Of a stretch of DNA of 32,000 nucleotides, positions 13,640-32,000 are shown piece by piece. The notes beneath the pieces were generated by a model. That model saw nothing but the letters and a program-made list of their open reading frames with translations, was not told where the DNA came from and did no database searches. Within the stretch, counting starts at the first letter, position 1. Each line of letters opens with the position of its first letter. Source of the DNA: Breznakia sp. PF5-3 (lineage in GTDB: Bacteria > Bacillota_I > Bacilli_A > Erysipelotrichales > Erysipelotrichaceae); contig NZ_JAQFIQ010000007.1 in the NCBI RefSeq assembly GCF_029504745.1, positions 30,001-62,000 on the forward strand, given 5' to 3'. The position numbers and the translations under genes are program-made.

Positions 13640-14200
13640 ATGAAGAAACTTAGAATCAGGAGTGAATATGTCATTTTTATTTTGAGAATGTTTGTAATCT
13701 TCAGCGTTCTTGTTTTTGTTGTAACTACTTTTATCTTTCGAACGGTGCGAATCAATGGACAAAGTATGGAACCAACATTACAAAGCGGAGAATATGCATT
13801 TTCAAACAGATTGGCAGCAGATGAAGGGAATATCAATCGATTTGATGTAATTGTAATTGATAACATTGAAGAAGATTATGTGGTGAAAAGAGTAATTGCA
13901 CTCCCCAATGAAACCATATCTTACAAAGATGGAAAGTTATATATTAATGGTGAATGGTATGAAGAACCATTCTTAGATCAAGAATATATTGCTTTGCATA
14001 CAATGAATAATCAAATTACTTTTACGCAAAATTTTGGACCAATCACATTAGGTGAAAATGAATATTTTGTACTTGGTGATAACCGATTGAATTCAAAAGA
14101 CTCTCGGGTCGTTGGTCCAATTCCTGAAAAAGACATTGTTGCAAAAGATGTAATTGTAGTATATCCGCTAAATAGTATACGTGTAGAAAGTTCCAACTAA
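13640..14200 (+). CDS. lepB: Signal peptidase I
   Basis: N-terminal TM, catalytic Ser box GQSMEPTL, Lys box VKRVIALPNE, and box E GDNRLNSKDSR. 186 aa. Confidence 0.92.
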   Translation: MKKLRIRSEYVIFILRMFVIFSVLVFVVTTFIFRTVRINGQSMEPTLQSGEYAFSNRLAADEGNINRFDVIVIDNIEEDYVVKRVIALPNETISYKDGKLYINGEWYEEPFLDQEYIALHTMNNQITFTQNFGPITLGENEYFVLGDNRLNSKDSRVVGPIPEKDIVAKDVIVVYPLNSIRVESSN

Positions 14201-14238: not shown

Positions 14239-14267
14239 AATATGTTAAGAAAGGATGAAAATGGAAT

Positions 14268-15593
14268 ATGAGCAGATTGAAAAAAGAAGAGATTCAAAAA
14301 TTTCTAGATGGAGACGATAGTGTTTTTCCTGAGATTTTTGCTGCTTATCGTAATAAGATTAATTATCTTGCGATAGAAATCTTACGAAACCAGGCAGATT
14401 GTGAGGAAGTAGTTCAAAATACGTTTATTAAAATCATTACCAAACGTAAGGATTTACGTGATGCTAGTGCTTTTAATACATGGATTTATCGAATTGCTTA
14501 CAACGACTGTATGGATATATATCGGCAAAATAAAAAGGGTAAAACAGGTATGAATAATGACTACACTCTAGAAAATTATTCTGACAACAAAGGAGAGCCA
14601 AACGATGTGGTGAGTAAAAAGGCAATTTTAGAAGCAATTCAAAGCGAAATTGATGGCCTTCCAGAGGATATGAAACAAGTGTGTTTGTTAAGATTCGTTG
14701 GTGAATGTAGCCTTGAAGAAATCTCTGAAATCATGAGTATTCCAAAAGGCACAGTAAAGAGTAGGCTAAACAGGGCAAAAGTAAAACTTCGAGAAGGGCT
14801 GGTTGATAAGCATGTGACTCCAGCAATCTATATGTCATTGTCATTTACACCTTTGGTATTTAAGTTGTATGCATCGTTAGTAAAACAACAAGAGATGCAA
14901 CCACTTGTAGAAACAAAAGTTGCTAAAGTTATTGAAAACGCAACAGGAGTAACAGCAGGAGTAACGGTCGCAAGCGGAGGAATGATTATAGGATTTGGTA
15001 GTGCAGTAATAGGAACATCTATATTATTAGCATTATTTGGCACTTATACGATTATAAATCCAATTATTGATCAAACGGCTGAAGTTGTAAAAATTGAGGA
15101 AATCAATTATTTGAAAGATCTTACAAATGAAAATTTGCAGATTGTTCTCATGTTCAGTGGAGAACCAGATGCAAAAGATATTAGTATAACATTTGTTGAT
15201 GAAAATACAACGATCGAGGCTGAATCCGTTGACAATGAAAACTACATGTTTGTTGCGAAGGCGAATGGAACATATCATGTAGAGTATGGTGGGGTAGCAC
15301 AGGATATCAAAGTTGATAACATTGACAAGCAAAGCCCTAAATTGAAAAGTTTAGAAAAGGAAGAAGGATTACTTAAGATTATAGGTAGTGATGATTTTTC
15401 TGGCATTGATTTCGATAAATCATACGTTGAAGAGGGTTCCAATAAGTTTGATTTGATCAAAATTGATGATACATCTGCATTTTTCAAAGATGCAGTTAAG
15501 AAAAAGGCAAAGCTGTATTTGTATGATAAGGTAGGAAATTACCAGGTCTATGAGATCAATGCAACAGATACAGTGAGCAATACAGATGGGTAG
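14268..15593 (+). CDS. Membrane-tethered ECF (sigma-70 family) sigma factor fused to a TM helix and an extracellular Ig-like C-terminal domain
   Basis: aa ~20-90 form sigma region 2 (EEVVQNTFIKI..AFNTWIYRIAYNDCMDIYR). aa ~125-180 form region 4 (LPEDMKQVCLLRF..SLEEISEIMSIPKGTVKSRLNRAK). The TM is GGMIIGFGSAVIGTSILLALFGTYTII. About 175 aa of ectodomain follow (NGTYHVEY..VDNIDKQSP; LYLYDKVGNYQVYEI). It is paralogous to 27790-29091. Confidence 0.8.
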   Translation: MSRLKKEEIQKFLDGDDSVFPEIFAAYRNKINYLAIEILRNQADCEEVVQNTFIKIITKRKDLRDASAFNTWIYRIAYNDCMDIYRQNKKGKTGMNNDYTLENYSDNKGEPNDVVSKKAILEAIQSEIDGLPEDMKQVCLLRFVGECSLEEISEIMSIPKGTVKSRLNRAKVKLREGLVDKHVTPAIYMSLSFTPLVFKLYASLVKQQEMQPLVETKVAKVIENATGVTAGVTVASGGMIIGFGSAVIGTSILLALFGTYTIINPIIDQTAEVVKIEEINYLKDLTNENLQIVLMFSGEPDAKDISITFVDENTTIEAESVDNENYMFVAKANGTYHVEYGGVAQDIKVDNIDKQSPKLKSLEKEEGLLKIIGSDDFSGIDFDKSYVEEGSNKFDLIKIDDTSAFFKDAVKKKAKLYLYDKVGNYQVYEINATDTVSNTDG

Positions 15594-20880: not shown

Positions 20881-22413
20881 ATGAAATTGAAAATAAAGAG
20901 TAATAAATTCAAGATCCTGGCAGTTGTAGTTTTGGCTGCTATTGTGGCAATCCCAAGTATGTTGGCAGCAAAGCCTATGGATACGAAAGCGGATGAAGTA
21001 GATGGCGAACCTACTTTTGATATTGCACCAATACATCAGGTAACTAGAAATGATGGAGGAGGAGCATATGGAACACATGCTCAACAAAGCTATGTAGAAG
21101 ATGGTGTTCAATATTATCGTAATGGCGATATTATTGAAGTAAGCATCATGCTTCCTAAAGGACACGGTGCGACCGTATTCCAAGATGTTGTAAAATATGA
21201 CGAAGAGAAATTAACATTAATTTCACCTTTCACAGATATTAAAGCAACATTATCTAAAAACTATTTAGATAAAAGATGGTCAACAGAAGTGTCAAACCCA
21301 AATGCAGATACTTCACGTATTTTAGTATTTGGATCAGCAGCAGATTTTACAACTGGTGCTGAATACCAAGGTGGTAGTGTTGCTAGAATGTATTTCCGCG
21401 TTAATAATAATGTGGAATCTGATGCAGGTACAGCAATTACATTTGAATTCCCAGAATTCCAAACCGCTGGATATTCAAATGGAAAAGTTGTATATACACA
21501 CAGAGGATATGATGCAAATAACGATGCAGCTACTGCATTCTATCAAGCAGAACCAGTTACAATATATGCAAAAACACCTTCAAAAACAGTAAATGCACCA
21601 ACCCTTAACTTGAAGAATAGTTCAGCAACTATTTATGAAGGAGATTTATTTGATCCAGCTTCATACATAAGCAATGCTTCTTGTGAGGTTGATAAATCAG
21701 TAAGCAAAGACACTGTTGATATTAGTGAAGGAACTGGAGTTTATACAAAACATCAACCAGCAGCTGGAACTTATGTTTATAAATACAGCGTAACAAGTAG
21801 TACAGGAAAATCAACAGAGAAACAATTGTCTTTAAAAGTAACAGCAAGAACATATACAGTTGCTTCTATCGATGTAGATTCTAAAAAAATATCATTGCCT
21901 GTTGGAACAGCAAGTTCTGATTTAGAAGCAATGATTAATGAGATGAAAAAAGAAGACTTTAATGTAACTATTACTTGTAATGATGGTTCTAAATTTGTTG
22001 TTCCAGGAAAAGTATTGAATGGAAAAACAGATACTTACCGTATTGATGAAAACGATAAGTTATTAGCACAAACATTTAATGTTAACTTTACATTAGCATT
22101 GCCACTTGTTTCTTATGGAACAGATGGATCAAGAATTGTAACGCCATACAATGGAAGTTCAAGTTTTGTAAGTAATGTTGGAAATGGAAGAGCGGATGCA
22201 AAAGTTCCTGTTATTATCGGTACAGGTAATTCAGGAGGAAACAATACTGGAGGAAATTCTTCAGGAAAACCATCTACTGCACCTACAGCAGGAAGTAGTA
22301 ATGGTAGTGGTTCTGCAGCTTCAACAGGGGATACAACAAATGTAACATTCCTTGCAGTATTAGCTATTTTATCAGCAGGATTTATCGTACGTTCAAAATT
22401 TAAAAAACAATAA
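20881..22413 (+). CDS. Cell-surface anchoring protein: signal peptide, cohesin-like module, Ig-like domains, G/S/N/T linker and a cell-wall-sorting-like C-terminus
   Basis: Start ATG 20881 after agaggagg; the listed 20752 extension crosses a terminator and a promoter. Signal peptide KFKILAVVVLAAIVAIPSMLAAKP. Cohesin-like region ~21004-21575 (GDIIEVSIMLP..VFQDVVKYDEEKLTLIS..RILVFG..GGSVARMYFRVNN..GTAITFEF). Big_3-like SSATIYEGDLFDP..GTYVYKYSV. Tail GSGSAASTGDTTNVTFLAVLAILSAGFIVRSKFKKQ. Confidence 0.8.
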   Translation: MKLKIKSNKFKILAVVVLAAIVAIPSMLAAKPMDTKADEVDGEPTFDIAPIHQVTRNDGGGAYGTHAQQSYVEDGVQYYRNGDIIEVSIMLPKGHGATVFQDVVKYDEEKLTLISPFTDIKATLSKNYLDKRWSTEVSNPNADTSRILVFGSAADFTTGAEYQGGSVARMYFRVNNNVESDAGTAITFEFPEFQTAGYSNGKVVYTHRGYDANNDAATAFYQAEPVTIYAKTPSKTVNAPTLNLKNSSATIYEGDLFDPASYISNASCEVDKSVSKDTVDISEGTGVYTKHQPAAGTYVYKYSVTSSTGKSTEKQLSLKVTARTYTVASIDVDSKKISLPVGTASSDLEAMINEMKKEDFNVTITCNDGSKFVVPGKVLNGKTDTYRIDENDKLLAQTFNVNFTLALPLVSYGTDGSRIVTPYNGSSSFVSNVGNGRADAKVPVIIGTGNSGGNNTGGNSSGKPSTAPTAGSSNGSGSAASTGDTTNVTFLAVLAILSAGFIVRSKFKKQ

Positions 22414-25598: not shown

Positions 25599-26675
25599 AT
25601 GAGAAAACTAAAAAAACAAATAGCTATTCTTACAGTATTGATAATTGCATTCATTACTTGTGCTAGCCCTTTACAGGCTGTGCATTATTCACAAGTGCCA
25701 AGTAATAATGGGGGACACCGTTTGCAAAATTCAATTGCATATGTAGGAGGTGGAAGAGCACCATTTACAGAAAATGGAGTGACGTATTATAATGCAGGAA
25801 ATGTGATCGAGCTAACGGTCACATTACCTGCTAATACATACGCAGTATCTTTGCAAGAAATCATTACCTATGATTTAAATCAAGTAGATTTGGTAACAAG
25901 TTTTAATGATATTCGTCAAACCTTTGGGCAATCCCTTTTGAATGAAGGATGGGCACAAGATGTATTTAAGATGAATGGAAACAATAATCAAATTTTACTT
26001 TCTGCAGCAGGAAGTGATTGGACTAATCACTCAAGTATTGCTGGTGGAGTTGTAGGAAAGATACGTTTTCGAATCAAAGAACAAACAACAACTAATGTTG
26101 GAACAAATATCAACATTAATTTTGTTTATCAAATTGCAGGAGCAAAACCAAATGGAAAAGGGTTGGCATATATTCATGCTGGATATGATCCAAGCAATGA
26201 AGGCGGTACCTATCAAGTATCTGCACCAACGATTTCAATTGCGGCTCATAAGATACCATCTGCACCAACGACACCTACCAATCCTGAAAAACCTACTGAT
26301 CCAGTCGTGGATTATCATCCAAGTGTTGTGATCGATAAGGAAATCAGTGAAAGTAAGAAAAAAGAGATTGCGGCAATTACAGCGAAACGGGATTATTCAT
26401 TCGCAAAATCGAATGATTTTATGAATGGAAAGAATTCGTATCGAAATATTGCGAAAATGTTGATTGATCAAATGGTAAAGACAAAAGATAAAATCAAATA
26501 TCAAACATATGAGTTTAAAGATCAATATTTAGATATAAAGGCTAAGAAGACAATTGTGAAAACTACTTGTTATACACATTATCTTTATATCGGGATGAGT
26601 TTTGTAGTAATTTTTGTAACATATGGTTATAAAAAATATTTAGAAGCGAATCGTAAAGTGAAATGGAGGTCTTAA
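25599..26675 (+). CDS. Membrane-anchored cohesin-like protein: signal peptide, cohesin-like module, Pro/Thr linker and a C-terminal TM helix
   Basis: Start ATG 25599 after gaagggaagg. Signal peptide KQIAILTVLIIAFITCASPLQA/VH. Cohesin-like region ~25680-26253 (GNVIELTVTLPAN..LQEIITYDLNQVDLVTS..QILLSAAG..GGVVGKIRFRIKE..GTNININF). Linker PSAPTTPTNPEKPTDP. C-terminal TM YLYIGMSFVVIFVTYGY followed by KKYLEANRK. Confidence 0.75.
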   Translation: MRKLKKQIAILTVLIIAFITCASPLQAVHYSQVPSNNGGHRLQNSIAYVGGGRAPFTENGVTYYNAGNVIELTVTLPANTYAVSLQEIITYDLNQVDLVTSFNDIRQTFGQSLLNEGWAQDVFKMNGNNNQILLSAAGSDWTNHSSIAGGVVGKIRFRIKEQTTTNVGTNININFVYQIAGAKPNGKGLAYIHAGYDPSNEGGTYQVSAPTISIAAHKIPSAPTTPTNPEKPTDPVVDYHPSVVIDKEISESKKKEIAAITAKRDYSFAKSNDFMNGKNSYRNIAKMLIDQMVKTKDKIKYQTYEFKDQYLDIKAKKTIVKTTCYTHYLYIGMSFVVIFVTYGYKKYLEANRKVKWRS

Positions 26676-26678
26676 TTT

Positions 26679-26828
26679 ATGAACTGTGGATATGACATGA
26701 TGGCTTTGATATTATTCTTTATTACCGTGTTTGTTTGTAGCTTTTATATCATGAAATTAAAGCGTCAACATGCACAAAGTAATGTCTTACATGATCAATT
26801 TTCAAAATATTTTAAAAAAAATGATTAA
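26679..26828 (+). CDS. Small (49 aa) single-TM protein; not in the supplied ORF track
   Basis: The ATG lies 9 nt after GGAGG (26665-26669, inside the end of the previous gene) and 3 nt after its stop. Sequence MNCGYDMMALILFFITVFVCSFYIMKLKRQHAQSNVLHDQFSKYFKKND: one TM followed by a basic tail. Confidence 0.45.
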   Translation: MNCGYDMMALILFFITVFVCSFYIMKLKRQHAQSNVLHDQFSKYFKKND

Positions 26829-26832
26829 AAAC

Positions 26833-26858
26833 GGAACCTTTTTCGGATTATAAGCGTC
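26833..26858 (+). promoter_or_regulatory. ECF-type promoter motif P2 (GGAACC-N16-CGTC) with no adjacent gene
   Basis: GGAACC 26833-26838, CGTC 26855-26858. It shares GGAACCTTTTT with P1. The next CDS starts 273 nt downstream. Confidence 0.45.
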
Positions 26859-27038
26859 TCAATAATGAAGGGTAAATTATTTATCCTTTGCGGATATAGT
26901 TATTTTGCAATACAACAATTACTATTAAATATCATAACCGAATATTTATTCAATCGAAATTAATCCTTTCTTTATTCGATGGTATCAATTAGCCCTCAGT
27001 AGTTGGATGTATACTAAATGATTATCTTTCGCAACTAG

Positions 27039-27119
27039 ATATCGCTATCAACTAATTAAATACGCCTTCCCTGAACAATACATGTATTTAGTTAACCCCG
27101 ATAGCGATATATTTTTTTT
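27039..27119 (+). terminator. Long interrupted hairpin plus U-tract (terminator or attenuator) abutting the SD of the next gene
   Basis: atatcgctatc (27039-27049) is the exact reverse complement of gatagcgatat (27100-27110). Inner arms aactaattaaatac / gtatttagtt extend the helix. T8 at 27112-27119, then GGAGG and ATG 27131. Confidence 0.5.
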
Positions 27120-27130
27120 GGAGGAATAAA

Positions 27131-27592
27131 ATGAAAAAAATTATAATTAGCTCAATTTGCTTTGTTGCATTACTAGCTGGATGTTCTTCTGGTAGCAAGG
27201 GAAGTGAAAAAGTTTGTACAATGACACAAGGAGCTAGTGATGAATTAGAAGAAAAAATTACCATTTCTTATGATGGAGATACAGTAACAACCATTGTTTC
27301 AAAGACTACCATTGATGTAGAAAAAACGAAAACAGGTACAACAATGGAGGATTTAGAAAAGCTTGCAAAAGATGTTGATAAAGTTTATAACGCTATCAAG
27401 GGTGTAAAGTATACATATGAAAGCAAAGATAAGAAATTCTATGAAACGATAACTGTAGATATCAAGGAAGAGAATATGGAAGAATTACAAAACAAGGGAA
27501 TGATTAATATGTATGTTGATGAAGATGGAAAAATCTTAAAAGCTGACAAATTGATTGATTTCTTGAAAGATTCAGGAATGAAGTGTAAATAA
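27131..27592 (+). CDS. Lipoprotein, YehR/DUF1307-like
   Basis: Lipobox LLAGC (MKKIIISSICFVALLAGCSSG). ~150 aa with an alternating beta/alpha pattern (ITISYDGDTVTTIV..; YNAIKGVKYTYESKDKKFYETITVD; ..KADKLIDFLKDSGMKCK), typical of DUF1307 lipoproteins as I recall them. Confidence 0.6.
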   Translation: MKKIIISSICFVALLAGCSSGSKGSEKVCTMTQGASDELEEKITISYDGDTVTTIVSKTTIDVEKTKTGTTMEDLEKLAKDVDKVYNAIKGVKYTYESKDKKFYETITVDIKEENMEELQNKGMINMYVDEDGKILKADKLIDFLKDSGMKCK

Positions 27593-27604
27593 TGAATATA
27601 ATAC

Positions 27605-27640
27605 AAAGATAGAACAATTTATAGTTTTATCTTTTTTTTT
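27605..27640 (+). terminator. Strong rho-independent terminator
   Basis: aaagatagaac (27605-27615) / gttttatcttt (27624-27634), 11 bp with one G-U. The U-tract runs to 27640. Confidence 0.85.
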
Positions 27641-27712
27641 GTGTCATTTTTGTTTGGTTTTATAACTAATATACTCATATGAAGTAAGTTTTAATATAAA
27701 ATAAAAAAATAA

Positions 27713-27739
27713 TGAACCATTTTTATGTTTATTTCAACT
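27713..27739 (+). promoter_or_regulatory. Diverged copy of promoter P1 upstream of sigma gene 2 (TGAACC-N17-AACT)
   Basis: TGAACCATTTTTATGTTTATTTCAACT compares with P1 GGAACCTTTTTTGTTTATTTCCGTC. The spacer string GTTTATTTC is identical, while both the -35 first base and the -10 CGTC differ. Functional status is unknown. Confidence 0.35.
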
Positions 27740-27789
27740 AATTATATGATAGGTTATATTTTTGTCATGTATTGAAAGGGGGCGATGCT

Positions 27790-29091
27790 ATGATGAGAAA
27801 AGTGGATGTGAAATATGTAGAAGCACTTCAACGCGGTGATTTGGAGGCTTTTAATGTAATTTACGATTATTATAAGAATTCCATTTATTTTTTTGTACTT
27901 AAATTTGTTGGTAATCAACAAGATGTTGAGGAAGTAGTACAAGATACGTTTGTCAATGCATATCGAAATATCAATATGTTGAAATCTTTGGATGCTTTTC
28001 ATTCATGGCTTTTTAGTATTGCTTACAGCCAAGCACAAATGGTATATCGAAGAAAATCACATGGTAATCTGATTGATGGGAATCTAGAAGAAATTGCTAA
28101 GGTTGAAGATTCACAAAAAAAAGAAATTGAAAATAAAGATATTCTTGGAGCTGTAGAAGATGAATTGTATAAATTGCCTGCAAAATATTCACAAGTAGGA
28201 CAATTGAAATACTTTGAAGAACTTTCGGTAAAAGAAATTGCAGAGGTCTTAAGTATTCCAGTCGGAACGGTTAAAACTAGATTAATGCGAATTAGAAAGA
28301 TGATATCTCCTGGTTTAGAAAAAAGAGGATATACACCAAAGAAATATTTTGGGTTTGCATTTACACCGCTTCTTTACCAAGCCTTTACAGCAATGATTAA
28401 CAATCATACATTGTCTGCTGAGCAATCAGTGTCAACGTTCAATACGATTCAAGAGAAGATTACTACTGGAGGAGGAACGGCCTTGTTGAGTGGTGTTTCT
28501 GCGACAGGTGCTATGGCATCTGCAGGTGTTAGTGCAGTAAATAAAGCAATGATTGGAGCAACTCTTATGGCAAGTGCAGTAGGTGGTGTTGTCATTTATC
28601 AAAACTTACATACGGAAGCTGCAGTAATTGAAGATATTGTATATTATCAAGATCTAACAAATAAGGATATTGAAGTTGCGGTTCTTTGCAATAAAGAAAT
28701 TGGTAGTGCGGATATTGATGTGTCGTATAACGAAACACCAGTCGTATTTCGTATAGAGGATAATAAGGTATTGTTTGATGCCAAAGATAATGGTGAATAT
28801 AAGATTAGTTTAAATGATGAAAATCAAGTCCTTACCATTGATAATATTGATAAGGAAGTTCCATTGATTCATAATGTGGCATATGATAACGATTTACTAA
28901 AAATTGAATTTGATGATGCAAATGCAATAGATTATCAAAAATCATATGTAAACTTTAATGAAAAATCATATACAATTTCAAAGCAAGGAACCGTTCATGA
29001 AAAATTGGATGGTGAGTTTGAAGTTGTGTTGTATGACTTGGCAGGGAATAAAGTCGGCTATAAGATAGACTTAAAGACATACAAAAATTAG
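27790..29091 (+). CDS. Second membrane-tethered ECF sigma factor fused to a TM segment and an extracellular Ig-like domain (paralogue of 14268-15593)
   Basis: Start ATG 27790 after aaaggggg. Region 2 EEVVQDTFVNAY..AFHSWLFSIAYSQAQMVYR. Region 4 LPAKYSQVGQLKYFEELSVKEIAEVLSIPVGTVKTRLMRIRK. Conserved FTPLLY linker, Ala/Gly-rich TM AMIGATLMASAVGGVVIY. Ectodomain YYQDLTNKDIEV.., NGEYKISL..IDNIDKEVP, VVLYDLAGNKVGYKI. Confidence 0.8.
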   Translation: MMRKVDVKYVEALQRGDLEAFNVIYDYYKNSIYFFVLKFVGNQQDVEEVVQDTFVNAYRNINMLKSLDAFHSWLFSIAYSQAQMVYRRKSHGNLIDGNLEEIAKVEDSQKKEIENKDILGAVEDELYKLPAKYSQVGQLKYFEELSVKEIAEVLSIPVGTVKTRLMRIRKMISPGLEKRGYTPKKYFGFAFTPLLYQAFTAMINNHTLSAEQSVSTFNTIQEKITTGGGTALLSGVSATGAMASAGVSAVNKAMIGATLMASAVGGVVIYQNLHTEAAVIEDIVYYQDLTNKDIEVAVLCNKEIGSADIDVSYNETPVVFRIEDNKVLFDAKDNGEYKISLNDENQVLTIDNIDKEVPLIHNVAYDNDLLKIEFDDANAIDYQKSYVNFNEKSYTISKQGTVHEKLDGEFEVVLYDLAGNKVGYKIDLKTYKN

Positions 29092-29102
29092 AGGGGTAAA
29101 AG

Positions 29103-30272
29103 ATGATAAAAAAGAAGGGCGCAAAAATTAGTTTTTTAATCATGTTAATAATTGCTTTGTCATTTATTACTTCTTTTTCTGTAAATGCAGACTCGTTTTT
29201 TGATTTACATATTTCTATCAAAGCTGAATATCAAGGGGAAGCAATTCAAAGTCATACCAAGATTCCTTATGGAAGTAATGTTCGAGTGCATATAGATATT
29301 TCAAACCAACAGGGGAATCTTACATCTAAAGTTAAATTAATACCGAAAGAAAGTATGGAATTTCTTTCGTATCAAAACAGTGAAGCCCAAATCAATGGTG
29401 TTTTGCTTAGTGCTAATGAATATCAACAATTACTTAATGATGGATATTCATTAGCACTGGGAAGTACACCAACAACGATTGCATTGAATGTAAAGTCGAC
29501 AGGTTCTACAAGAAGTAAAATGTCAGCCGATATCAAAGTTTCTTCGACATCTATAAGCAATCGAAACTCTTATGAAATTTTTGAAATGCCAATACATGGA
29601 GATTTTAAGAGTAAAGAAACAGGTCCTCAGAATGCTTATCGAATCGCTTTATATGACGATGCGTTAAGTTTGATTGATGCTTTTGAAGTAACTCATAATG
29701 AGGTGTTTACATTACCAACGTTTACTCGTTATGGTTCTACGTTTGTAGGGTTTAATACAAAGCCAGATGGAACAGGTAAATATTTTATTCGTGGAACCGT
29801 TAATAAGGCTACTAATTTTTATGCTGTTTACAGCACAAACAAATACAAAGTCACCTATTACATAAATGGAAGTGTATATATGGTAGATTATGTTAATCAT
29901 GGTGAAGATGCACAAAATATTATTCCTTCCACTAAGGAGAGTGAAGGGAATAACTTTTTGCGTTGGGAAGGAAATCTAAATGCTGTTGATAGTGATCGTG
30001 ATGTGTTTGCAGTGTTTGAGAAAAAAGCAACCTTTCGCACTGGGATCGATTACTATATGTATATGATGGAACGAGGTTCTGGACGTCATAATGCGGATGG
30101 TGGAGATAGTTATAAACCAGATATTAATCTGTTTTTTGATGCCCTTATAGGGAAAATGCAAACATCCAATGAGTTTGTGAAGATTCTTTTCAGTACGATT
30201 CCTCTAATGTTGATTTTAGGGGGATGGTCTATGTACTTTTATAAAAAACGTTATGGAAGGAAAATATCATGA
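29103..30272 (+). CDS. Surface protein: signal peptide, DUF11-like N-terminal module, two Listeria-Bacteroides (Flg_new-type) repeats and a C-terminal TM anchor
   Basis: Signal peptide FLIMLIIALSFITSFSVNA/DS. IPYGSNVRVHIDISNQQGNLTSKVKLIPKESMEFLSY is DUF11-like. FTRYGSTFVGFNTKPDGTGKYF..NFYAVY and YKVTYYINGSVY..NFLRWEG..DVFAVF are Flg_new-like. C-terminal TM ILFSTIPLMLILGGWSMYFY followed by KKRYGRK. It starts 11 nt after sigma gene 2. Confidence 0.75.
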   Translation: MIKKKGAKISFLIMLIIALSFITSFSVNADSFFDLHISIKAEYQGEAIQSHTKIPYGSNVRVHIDISNQQGNLTSKVKLIPKESMEFLSYQNSEAQINGVLLSANEYQQLLNDGYSLALGSTPTTIALNVKSTGSTRSKMSADIKVSSTSISNRNSYEIFEMPIHGDFKSKETGPQNAYRIALYDDALSLIDAFEVTHNEVFTLPTFTRYGSTFVGFNTKPDGTGKYFIRGTVNKATNFYAVYSTNKYKVTYYINGSVYMVDYVNHGEDAQNIIPSTKESEGNNFLRWEGNLNAVDSDRDVFAVFEKKATFRTGIDYYMYMMERGSGRHNADGGDSYKPDINLFFDALIGKMQTSNEFVKILFSTIPLMLILGGWSMYFYKKRYGRKIS

Positions 30273-32000
30273 AAAAATTAGAGGGAAAATGGATTAAAGT
30301 AGCGACTATAATTTCAATATGTATGATTGCTATTTTAGTAAAGAGTACCTATATGGTATTCAGTGAAAACACAAAATATCTTGATTATGAAGTTATGCGT
30401 GATCAAGTAAATCCAATTGCTTATATTGTGTTTGATGTTCATAACGCTGCAAATGAAATTGAATCGATAAAGGACCCAGAAGGAAATTTATTGGATTTAC
30501 AAACAGCGCGTTACACAGTTGAGGAAAGTGGTGAATATGTCTTTACGATTCGTTATATAGAGGCTAATGAGACAAAGGAAGTCACACAGGCAATTGCAGT
30601 GGATATTGTAAAACGTCCACAAGCGCGTGCGCTAGGAAGACAACTTGTACCAGATGAAAATTTTTATAATTATTTGATTAGCGAAAAAGGATTACCGACA
30701 GATTTTACACAAGCAGATCTTGCAAGTGTTGATTATATCGATTATATGACATCTGATCCATCCTTACGGATTAATAGCATTCAAGGAATTGAATACATGA
30801 GTAATCTTACACATGTTTATTTGAATGACCAAAATCTATCGTCTTTACAACCAATGAAAGATACCATTTATCCAAAACTAACAATGTTAGAGTTTAACAA
30901 TTGGAATACAGGGACAAACGCCATTCATGATTTATCCTTGCTTACCAAAAGTAGATTTCCACAATTAAAAGGTCAAATTATGTTTAATAATAATGGCATT
31001 ACAGATGAGCATTTAACAACCTTACCAACAAGTGATGGTATTGAAAAAGCCCAATTTCATTTTCAAAATAATAATATTTCTAGTTTAGAAATATTTCGTC
31101 ATTATTCAGACTTAAAAGAGTTGCATGTACAACACAATCAGATTGCTGATTTAACACCATTATCAACTTTGAGAAATGTGGAAATTCTTCAACTTTCAAA
31201 TAATCTAATTGTAGATGTTTCCCCTTTGACAACGATTCAAAGTATTTCGAATGCTTCTTTATATTTAAATAATAATCAGATTGTTGATTTATCACCATTA
31301 CAATCCTTTACAGGATCTATTTATGCCCAGACATATCATCCATCTATTGATCCTTATCATGATCCAGATCAAAATTATGGACAGCAGATTTATTTGAATG
31401 AACCAATTTATGGTGACAAGAAGACGAAAACAATTAAAGTGTATGCAACAGGTAAAAATCGTGATGGAAATGCGATTCCCTTTGAGTGTGAAGGAAATCT
31501 AGTTGAAGAGGCAGAGATAACACTTCTTGATTTAGATGATACCTATACATATACATCGTCTTTGATTGAATATGATACAAGGTATCAAAGTGTGACTACG
31601 CAACCTATCATATGGTGGGATAATCCAATCATTACAATGGATGCTTTAGAAATTTTCACTGATACAAATTATGATTTGTTAACGGGTGTAGAAGCGATAG
31701 ATACCTTAGGTAATAGTTTAACCACAAAAGTATCTATTCACGATAGGGGGAGCTTTAAAAGCGATGTACCAGGAACTTATGAAGTTCAATATAAAGTGGT
31801 AGATGAAAGAAACTATGAAACGATTCAGACACGTATTATCAAAGTACATGGTCAACCAATTCTTAAAATGGAAAACCAACGTTTTAATGTTGATGATTTC
31901 TCTAATATAAATATAAATCAACATGTAAATGCATATTGGATGCAAGCACAGGATAGTCCTAATCAAAGTGCTCAAAAAGTAGCAATTGAAGATAAAGACT
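30269..32000 (+). CDS. Internalin-like leucine-rich-repeat surface protein; the 3' end lies outside the window and it is absent from the supplied ORF track
   Basis: I hand-translated this frame from ATG 30269 (ATGA overlap with the previous stop) to nt 32000 and found no stop in 577 codons. N-terminal signal anchor WIKVATIISICMIAILV. Small beta module (IESIKDPEGN..YTVEESGEYVFTIRY). LRRs (IQGIEYMSNLTHVYLNDQNLSSLQPM; LHVQHNQIADLTPLSTLRNVEILQLSNNLIVDVSPLTT; LYLNNNQIVDLSPL). DUF5011/Ig-like segment (LLTGVEAIDTLGNSLTTKVSI..VPGTYEVQYKVVDERNYE..RIIKVHG). Confidence 0.8.
   Translation, partial: MKKLEGKWIKVATIISICMIAILVKSTYMVFSENTKYLDYEVMRDQVNPIAYIVFDVHNAANEIESIKDPEGNLLDLQTARYTVEESGEYVFTIRYIEANETKEVTQAIAVDIVKRPQARALGRQLVPDENFYNYLISEKGLPTDFTQADLASVDYIDYMTSDPSLRINSIQGIEYMSNLTHVYLNDQNLSSLQPMKDTIYPKLTMLEFNNWNTGTNAIHDLSLLTKSRFPQLKGQIMFNNNGITDEHLTTLPTSDGIEKAQFHFQNNNISSLEIFRHYSDLKELHVQHNQIADLTPLSTLRNVEILQLSNNLIVDVSPLTTIQSISNASLYLNNNQIVDLSPLQSFTGSIYAQTYHPSIDPYHDPDQNYGQQIYLNEPIYGDKKTKTIKVYATGKNRDGNAIPFECEGNLVEEAEITLLDLDDTYTYTSSLIEYDTRYQSVTTQPIIWWDNPIITMDALEIFTDTNYDLLTGVEAIDTLGNSLTTKVSIHDRGSFKSDVPGTYEVQYKVVDERNYETIQTRIIKVHGQPILKMENQRFNVDDFSNININQHVNAYWMQAQDSPNQSAQKVAIEDKD

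Follow-up and report, generated by a model that had tools for sequence, protein, structure and literature searches.

In Bacillus subtilis, the -10 tetramer of a promoter can decide between paralogous extracytoplasmic function (ECF) sigma factors: with CGAC versus CGTA, recognition shifts between sigma-X and sigma-W, and several sigmas read CGTC (Gaballa et al. 2018, PMC5758882, citing Qiu and Helmann). Other ECF factors are sigma/anti-sigma hybrids, such as IutY of Pseudomonas putida (ECF243) and the actinobacterial ECF48, ECF52 and ECF53, for instance SCO4117. Proteolytic release of these hybrids has been proposed or shown, for IutY via Prc and RseP (review PMC8999054). In Clostridium thermocellum, many sigma-I/RsgI paralogues each combine an outward sensor with their own promoter variant, are autoregulated and undergo RseP-dependent release (PMC6056542, PMC4711584, PMC10575876, PMC12203970). 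The locus described here lies in a 32,000-nucleotide (nt) stretch of Breznakia sp. PF5-3 (contig NZ_JAQFIQ010000007.1, positions 30,001 to 62,000; hereafter the window, whose numbering is used throughout). It comprises a predicted ECF promoter on the + strand (27713-27742) and, directly 3' of it, the gene of an ECF factor fused to a membrane segment and an outer domain (sigma-2). The element is quite probably the autoregulatory promoter of sigma-2, a tethered ECF factor with two CAAC-TAAT promoters that arose by cassette duplication. Fused ECF sigmas and -10-based discrimination between paralogous ECF sigmas are both already known, and the sigma-2 module (module 2) is a variant of both.

Read directly from the sequence, the predicted sigma-2-dependent promoter consists of the -35 TGAACC (27713-27718), a 16-nt spacer that starts with a T-tract (27719-27734), the -10 CAAC (27735-27738) and an extended TAAT (27739-27742). 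Transcription is expected to start near 27745-27748, 42-45 nt 5' of the ATG. The register was set by the family consensus (T/G)GAAC-N17-nnnC-TAA, with a spacer of 16 nt after TGAACC compared with 15 nt in P1 (14214-14238), the promoter upstream of a second fused sigma gene of the window (sigma-1, 14268-15593). The initial annotation had compared the two upstream regions: its string TGAACCATTTTTATGTTTATTTCAACT sits exactly at 27713-27739 and the spacer that it described as shared is present, while its -10, AACT, gives way in the family register to CAAC followed by TAAT. CAAC departs from CGTC in its second and third bases, and the final C is retained. Against the sigma-XWM promoter pattern (AAC -35, 16-17 nt spacer, CGT -10), the -35 TGAACC and the 16-nt spacer fit, whereas the -10 is CAAC and not CGT(A/C).

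Judged by its sequence, the element looks functional, a live promoter rather than a dead copy of P1, because the same motif recurs 5' of the neighbouring giant adhesin gene. This twin (+ strand, C7:62919, window-equivalent 32919-32948) lies outside the window, 919 nt past its end, and was recovered by a genome search with the 27713 pattern of the initial annotation. It is intergenic, 26 nt after the stop codon of a leucine-rich repeat (LRR) protein gene and 84 nt before the giant adhesin ATG. All 16 specified bases are identical between the two copies (16/16), and TGAACCA-N14-TCAACTAAT occurs twice in the 2.36-Mb genome, against 0.0035 occurrences expected. Flanks and spacer are 37% identical, near background. 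With identity thus confined to the core, the motif appears to have been conserved and not recently copied as DNA. A scan of the intergenic DNA of the locus for [TG]GAAC, blind to the -10, found CAAC-TAAT at these two sites only. Sigma-1-type promoters (GGAACC-N15/16-CGTC) number three in the window (14214, 20795 and 26833), where 0.01 would be expected. Neither locus holds the motif of the other, except for the sigma-1-type site at 26833; one gene and a hairpin resembling a terminator lie between that site and sigma-2.

Two further CAAC sites, C25:30274 and C44:4573, were dropped, as both lie inside coding frames. A looser intergenic site, TGAACC-N16-CAAC-TTAT at C12:14128 (L002 2128-2163), stands 132 nt before two small open reading frames (ORFs; 136 and 190 aa) that have no Pfam or family match. 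Either chance or a distant member of the regulon could account for it.

The spacer string shared by the 27713 element and P1 needs to be considered separately. This 9-mer, GTTTATTTC, has 70 occurrences in the genome, and promoters more closely related to either of the two lack it. T-tracts adjoining the -35 are known to contribute to ECF promoter function (PMC5758882), and the shared string is for this reason weak evidence of homology. On these three grounds it was rejected as decisive proof of descent shared with P1, and it is probably a T-tract coincidence.

Matched promoter pairs are also found in related modules, in most cases as the -10 regions before the sigma gene and before the giant gene. 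The sigma-2 module has TCAACTAAT at both positions. A module on contig C28 of this genome has GCGTCATAC and GCGTCTTAC, i.e. CGTC-(A/T)TAC at both promoters; L039, from another species of the genus, has GCGTCTTAC at both; and L003, whose sigma is 52% identical to sigma-2 and its closest relative elsewhere, has GCATCTAAT (CATC-TAAT) at both. Within this genome, TGTC-TAA stands at three sites in the C27 locus, AGAC-TAA at two sites for C45, the second of them on contig C70, and GGAACC with CGTC at the three sigma-1 sites. Overall, the tetramer upstream of the sigma gene equals that of its partner in 10 of 13 loci, compared with 2.8 on shuffling, and in 8 of 10 (p about 1e-5) once likely orthologues are dropped. 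Because some partner sites had been found by searching with the sigma-upstream motif, four own-genome loci were re-searched without reference to the -10, and the same pairs were obtained. The -35, the spacing and the C-TAA frame are kept at homologous positions in more than 10 related modules, and the two -10 tetramers co-vary between modules: with CGTC at both promoters of C28 and CATC at both of L003, the two promoters have changed in step within each module. Such co-variation is what one would expect of sigmas that each read their own promoters and evolve along with them. Within this genome, CAAC occurs as a pair in module 2 only, and it is two positions away from every other paralogue's tetramer. 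Comparison thus supports the divergence of promoter specificity that the initial annotation proposed: the sigma-2 promoter has another specificity signature than P1, the altered motif recurs before the giant adhesin gene, and related modules have matched pairs of their own.

Some promoters of the family show additional features. The C28 promoters (C28:23878 and 29141) have seven spacer bases in common (TGACTTA, immediately 5' of the -10), a longer match than in the sigma-2 pair; this may reflect an extended -10 or more recent homogenisation. In L047 of the related genome G171 (G171:C2:292800-311800, reverse-complemented with the sigma gene on the + strand), two fused sigma genes occupy one island, and the second is preceded (14241-14385) by the motif of the first, GCGACTAAT, and by a different one, ACATCTAAC. 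The double motif suggests a sigma cascade. In C27, the TGTC-TAA motif is found before both sigma genes.

Sigma-2 belongs to a family with at least 13 full-length fused-sigma paralogues in this Breznakia genome. It has the ECF core, the FTP motif, the one hydrophobic segment and the C-terminal domain of about 150 aa with NGxY, DNIDKxxP and YDxxGN by which the family is recognised. In a maximum-likelihood tree of 32 family members, sigma-2 is sister to L003 (100/100) within a clade that includes C28, L039, L040 and L007 (99/97), and sigma-1 falls in a separate clade with L048, C36 and C34 (100/99). The members of the sigma-2 clade whose neighbourhood was read have the four-gene order sigma, repeat protein, LRR protein, giant adhesin. 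The closest paralogous module in this genome is the one on C28, read via a near-identical public contig of assembly GCA_029504775.1, and the products of its four genes share 41, 33, 41 and 41% identity with their module 2 counterparts. Since all four C28 genes are homologous, and given the tree, module 2 is best seen as the product of a whole-cassette duplication, with C28 as its sister, and not, as first proposed, as a duplicate of the sigma-1 module; by sequence, sigma-1 and sigma-2 are distant family members, not direct duplicates.

An exhaustive search with the outer domain alone returned 96 clusters among 1.84 billion representatives, most of them 410-465 aa long with the domain at the C-terminus. 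Sigma domains were present in all seven sampled full-length matches, and three short proteins (P0061, P0064 and P0104; 187-214 aa) are without them. A sigma-less copy of the outer domain also adjoins the C34 paralogue (C34:16260-16823). The named sources of the family are Breznakia and a metagenome-assembled genome (MAG) of the Coprobacillaceae, and no published description of this fused sigma/membrane/tandem immunoglobulin-like (Ig-like) family of the Erysipelotrichales was found.

The sigma-2 gene (27790-29091, + strand) starts with an ATG at 27790, just 3' of AAGGGGG, and its stop codon ends at 29091. Its 433-aa product begins with an ECF sigma (residues 1 to about 180), which a low-complexity linker connects to a hydrophobic segment (253-269), and ends with a tandem Ig-like extracytoplasmic domain (about 280-430). 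Pfam places Sigma70_r2 at residues 25-90 and Sigma70_r4_2 at 122-171, with no r3, and sigma-2 thus has regions 2 and 4 only, without region 3 or 1.1, as group 4 ECF factors do. Sigma-1 and sigma-2 both carry these two domains within residues 1-176 and have no further Pfam match (E <= 0.01) beyond them. The two are full-length paralogues with 28% identity over 441 columns (BLASTP, E 6e-57), and all the shared blocks reported in the initial annotation are present: FTPLV/FTPLL, YLKDLTNE/YYQDLTNK, NGTY/NGEY, VDNIDKQSP/IDNIDKEVP, LLKI and LYDKVGN/LYDLAGN. Sigma-2 scores 89.9 bits against the ECF superfamily model TIGR02937 (NCBIfam, cut-off 42.9) and reaches no NCBIfam equivalog cut-off (SigW, SigX, SigV, RpoE and others), the best being SigW with 110 bits against 209. 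Its closest solved-structure sequence is that of B. subtilis SigW (E 3e-23).

An AlphaFold2 model of sigma-2, built from 14 family members (mean predicted local distance difference test score, pLDDT, 67.5), has confident sigma helices and two beta-sandwiches at 280-430 with pLDDT 85-92. Foldseek matches the N-terminal half best to AlgU, sigma-E and SigW, and superposes region 2 on sigma-E with -10 DNA bound (4lup; template modelling (TM) score 0.88, root-mean-square deviation 1.8 A). The C-terminal half matches generic tandem Ig domains only, and the label of a fused adhesin given to this protein in the initial annotation is not supported. The sole hydrophobic segment, residues 253-269 (Kyte-Doolittle mean 1.98), is rich in Ala, Gly and Ser and directly preceded by K252; a hydrophobic segment is found at a similar place (near residues 240-277) in all 32 family members examined. 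Pfam and the sequence reveal no anti-sigma domain in the stretch from the sigma core to the membrane segment, and residues 178-252 contain no cysteine and one histidine.

Compared with the sigma-W, -X, -M and -V promoters of B. subtilis, the sigma-2 promoter has the same AAC -35, 16-17 nt spacer, T-tract by the -35 and 4-base -10 (PMC5758882). The autoregulation predicted for sigma-2 and the sorting of promoters among paralogues by one or two tetramer changes likewise have B. subtilis counterparts (PMC5758882). However, the -10 CAAC lacks the CGT core, sigma-2 carries its membrane segment and outer domain in the same chain and does not pair with a separate anti-sigma, and its predicted regulon is a local adhesin cassette, unlike the envelope-stress regulons of B. 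subtilis. In joining an ECF core, a membrane segment and an extracytoplasmic part in one polypeptide, sigma-2 resembles IutY and ECF48/52/53. Unlike ECF243 (IutY), it is without a FecR-type domain (Pfam E <= 0.01) and its neighbours are Gram-positive surface proteins instead of a TonB-dependent receptor; unlike ECF48/52/53, it lacks a zinc-finger (ZAS-like) segment, in that residues 178-252 hold no Cys, one His and no Pfam match. Its Gram-positive Erysipelotrichaceae host, the tandem Ig-like outer part and the number of paralogues per genome also set it apart from the known hybrids. With the sigma-I/RsgI system of C. thermocellum it shares a paralogue set within one genome and promoter variants and, as predicted here, an outward-facing sensor, autoregulation, RseP-like release and surface-assembly genes as targets. 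Nevertheless, sigma-I is not an ECF factor, the RsgI sensor is a separate protein and the targets are cellulosomal enzymes and not adhesins, and the likeness is one of logic, an analogy and not homology.

A possible release route for a membrane-held sigma in Firmicutes is offered by the RsiV/sigma-V and RsiP/sigma-P pathways, in which signal peptidase cuts at site 1 and RasP at site 2 (PMC10202637). In the present family, a type I signal peptidase gene lies directly 5' of sigma-1 (window 13640-14200), of the C34 paralogue (5' of C34:15610) and of the sigma gene of L040 (805-1425), a relative of C28 in genome G128 (G128:C7, reverse-complemented with the sigma gene on the + strand). The window copy has a Pfam match, and the C34 and L040 copies are assigned from their sequence. 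The signal peptidase beside some fused sigma genes may be a dedicated site-1 protease. Module 2 has no adjacent signal peptidase gene, and the substrate would be the sigma itself and not an anti-sigma. By analogy with IutY, the actinobacterial fused ECFs, RsiV, RsiP and RsgI (PMC8999054, PMC10202637, PMC12203970), sigma-2 is probably held at the membrane and released by cleavage.

Taken as a mechanism, sigma-2 holoenzyme would start transcription at two TGAACC-N16-CAAC-TAAT promoters, of which the first would drive sigma-2, the Listeria-Bacteroides-repeat protein and the LRR protein, and the second the giant pectate-lyase-fold adhesin. The whole four-gene cassette would have been duplicated, with its sister on contig C28, and both -10 tetramers would then have changed together, from a likely ancestral CGTC to the CAAC of this module, with CATC in the closest relative and the last C fixed throughout. 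The cassette would thereby have gained a promoter type of its own among the paralogues of the genome. Sigma-2 is envisaged in the membrane with its sigma part inside the cell and its Ig-like part outside, so that a surface signal would lead to its proteolytic release. The last cut would be made by a site-2 protease of the M50 family, of which the genome has a single gene (C9:23742-24734). Tethering itself, and not an inhibitory domain, may keep sigma-2 inactive. Sigma-2 could also act while tethered.

Not all observations fit this scheme. The membrane segment of sigma-2 is only moderately hydrophobic, and the AlphaFold2 model is unconfident across residues 188-275; topology and proteolysis consequently rest on analogy. 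The assignment of sigma-2 as the factor that reads the CAAC sites, with a recognition of its own, is suggested by sequence comparison and also has points against it. The pairs are unequal in three related loci (L044 TCTC/GCAC, L046 CGTC/AGTC and L043 TGTC/AGTC), in L007 the motif stands before the giant gene alone, the sigma gene being preceded by a sigma-70-like site, and CGTC is common to at least five paralogues in this genome. In addition, alignment of the DNA-contact regions, which the initial annotation had named as the place to look for diverged specificity, revealed no region 2 or region 4 residue that tracks the -10 variants across the family. For example, the loop before the FxxW motif reads SLDAF in sigma-2, SNKAF in C28 and DASAF in sigma-1, and the region 4 recognition helix reads VKTRLMRIR in sigma-2 and VKSRLNRAK in sigma-1. 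Within the six-member clade of sigma-2, tetramer position 2 is not G where this loop has a D and is G where it has a K; L040 is an exception, and the rule fails across the family. The final C of CAAC is taken here to be the equivalent of the flipped-out base of solved sigma-E complexes. According to the titles of these structures (4lup, 5or5), the -10 is GTC followed by an A-rich stretch, and an engineered loop alters the base read at the last position.

These points lend some weight to a different view, in which the sites are real ECF promoters without being private: sigma-1, the C28 sigma and others would read overlapping sets, and CAAC would only tune promoter strength. Overlapping recognition is common among ECF paralogues, with sigma-X, -W, -M and -V of B. 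subtilis as examples, and the CGTC -10 is promiscuous (PMC5758882); in G171, CGTC-TAA and CGAC-TAA each occur at three non-sister sigma genes. As several paralogues share CGTC, some regulon overlap is possible, and likely in general. For module 2, however, such sharing is unlikely, since CAAC stands at both of its promoters and at no other paralogue's, the within-locus pairing is far above the shuffled expectation, and the -35 and the bases following the -10 also differ among CGTC-sharing paralogues. Quite improbable is the suggestion that a DNA-binding protein other than a sigma factor binds the paired motif, or that the motif is a short repeated element with only a resemblance to an ECF promoter. 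The link of the motif to RNA polymerase is predicted from sequence comparison; its spacing, orientation, start-codon distance and bipartite form all match ECF promoters, and the conservation of the -35, spacing and C-TAA frame in the related modules points the same way. Self-promoters are, moreover, the rule for ECF sigma genes.

The initial annotation had also allowed for a dead second promoter, and the 27713 element could in principle be a decayed, inactive copy, with the operon run by a housekeeping promoter or by read-through from 26833. Its -10 is indeed without the CGT core usual in ECF promoters of Firmicutes (PMC5758882), and a sigma-1-type promoter stands 880 nt 5' on the same strand. 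This explanation is nonetheless very unlikely, to the point of being hardly credible: the 16 bases recur exactly before the giant adhesin gene amid unrelated flanks, matched pairs are kept in relatives, and no sigma-70-like site was found on the + strand of 27600-27790. A terminator-like hairpin with a U-run (27605-27648, + strand) also lies between the upstream gene and the element, and probably keeps transcripts begun at the 26833 promoter from running into the sigma-2 operon. It has an 11-bp stem, AAAGAUAGAAC/GUUUUAUCUUU, followed by U8; the fold of 27585-27660 reaches -15 kcal/mol (z = -3.05 versus shuffles), and the hairpin was not called by a G+C-based terminator scan. The autoregulatory sigma-2 promoter thus stays the preferred interpretation.

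The remaining genes of the cassette encode surface proteins, and coordinates confirm the 11-nt and -4-nt spacings first reported for the two that follow sigma-2. Gene 2 (29103-30272, + strand) starts after a gap of 11 nt (29092-29102) and encodes a protein in which an Ig-like domain and Listeria-Bacteroides repeats lie between a signal peptide and a C-terminal membrane anchor; its hydrophobic segments are residues 4-30 and 358-379. The repeat that had been noticed in it is borne out by a match to Flg_new (Pfam, E 4e-7), and the DUF11-like character ascribed to it holds only in the sense of a pilin/adhesin-like Ig fold: the AlphaFold2 model (mean pLDDT 69) resembles pilin/MSCRAMM-like Ig folds in Foldseek with low TM-scores. 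A gene 2 homologue is found 3' of the sigma gene in L003, L005 and L007. Gene 3 overlaps gene 2 by 4 nt (30269-30272) and runs on the + strand from 30269 through the window end at 32000 to window-equivalent 32893. Its 874-aa product, an LRR and Ig-like surface protein with hydrophobic segments at residues 6-32 and 848-869, the latter a C-terminal anchor, had been described as internalin-like; the domains found are LRR_4 and Bact_surface_Ig-like (Pfam). BLASTP found no copy of the sigma-2 outer domain in gene 2 or the LRR protein (E >= 0.49). The giant adhesin gene begins outside the window at window-equivalent 33002 (+ strand) and is cut by the contig end after more than 1681 aa, with Pectate_lyase_5 ('putative pectate lyase-like adhesive domain') and Bact_surface_Ig-like repeats (Pfam).

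Upstream of the cassette, the sigma-1-type promoter at 26833-26858 (GGAACC-N16-CGTC) is followed by a 272-nt leader without an ORF or Rfam match, and then by the DUF1307 lipoprotein gene (27131-27592), which lies directly 5' of the sigma-2 promoter and whose 3' side carries the hairpin. DUF1307 was considered as a conserved partner of the sigma gene and rejected, as the arrangement recurs only in L057, the Coprobacillaceae MAG, and in no other examined locus. An Rfam search of 26000-32000 for known RNA families gave one sub-threshold chance match only. Elsewhere, a putative non-LPXTG sorting signal, (A/T)GDTT(D/N) followed by a hydrophobic stretch and a basic tail, was seen at the C-termini of two surface proteins, AAGDTTDISLYMQVLVVFGIFVLRKLKKKIF and STGDTTNVTFLAVLAILSAGFIVRSKFKKQ (L001 6790-6893, an LRR protein, and window 22300-22413).

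A broader and more tentative proposal, which may well not hold, is that the fused sigmas of this genome are orthogonal one-protein switches, each sensing contact or a ligand through its Ig-like part and controlling its own adhesin cassette only. CAAC would then be a new mode of ECF recognition, reached stepwise from CGTC through CATC at all cassette promoters together with changes in region 2, and relatives would preserve the intermediates. The locus makes a general question testable, namely how a sigma factor that is duplicated along with all its promoters can reach a new specificity without passing through a dead state. Because the sister CGTC, relative CATC and present CAAC cassettes are all available, each with two matched promoters, this path can be rebuilt and tested with reporters. 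The family is also a source of compact sigma/promoter pairs, possibly non-cross-reacting, with the sensor built in. As for the organism itself, an insect-gut member of the Erysipelotrichaceae appears to control each of its many giant adhesins by a separate surface-linked switch.

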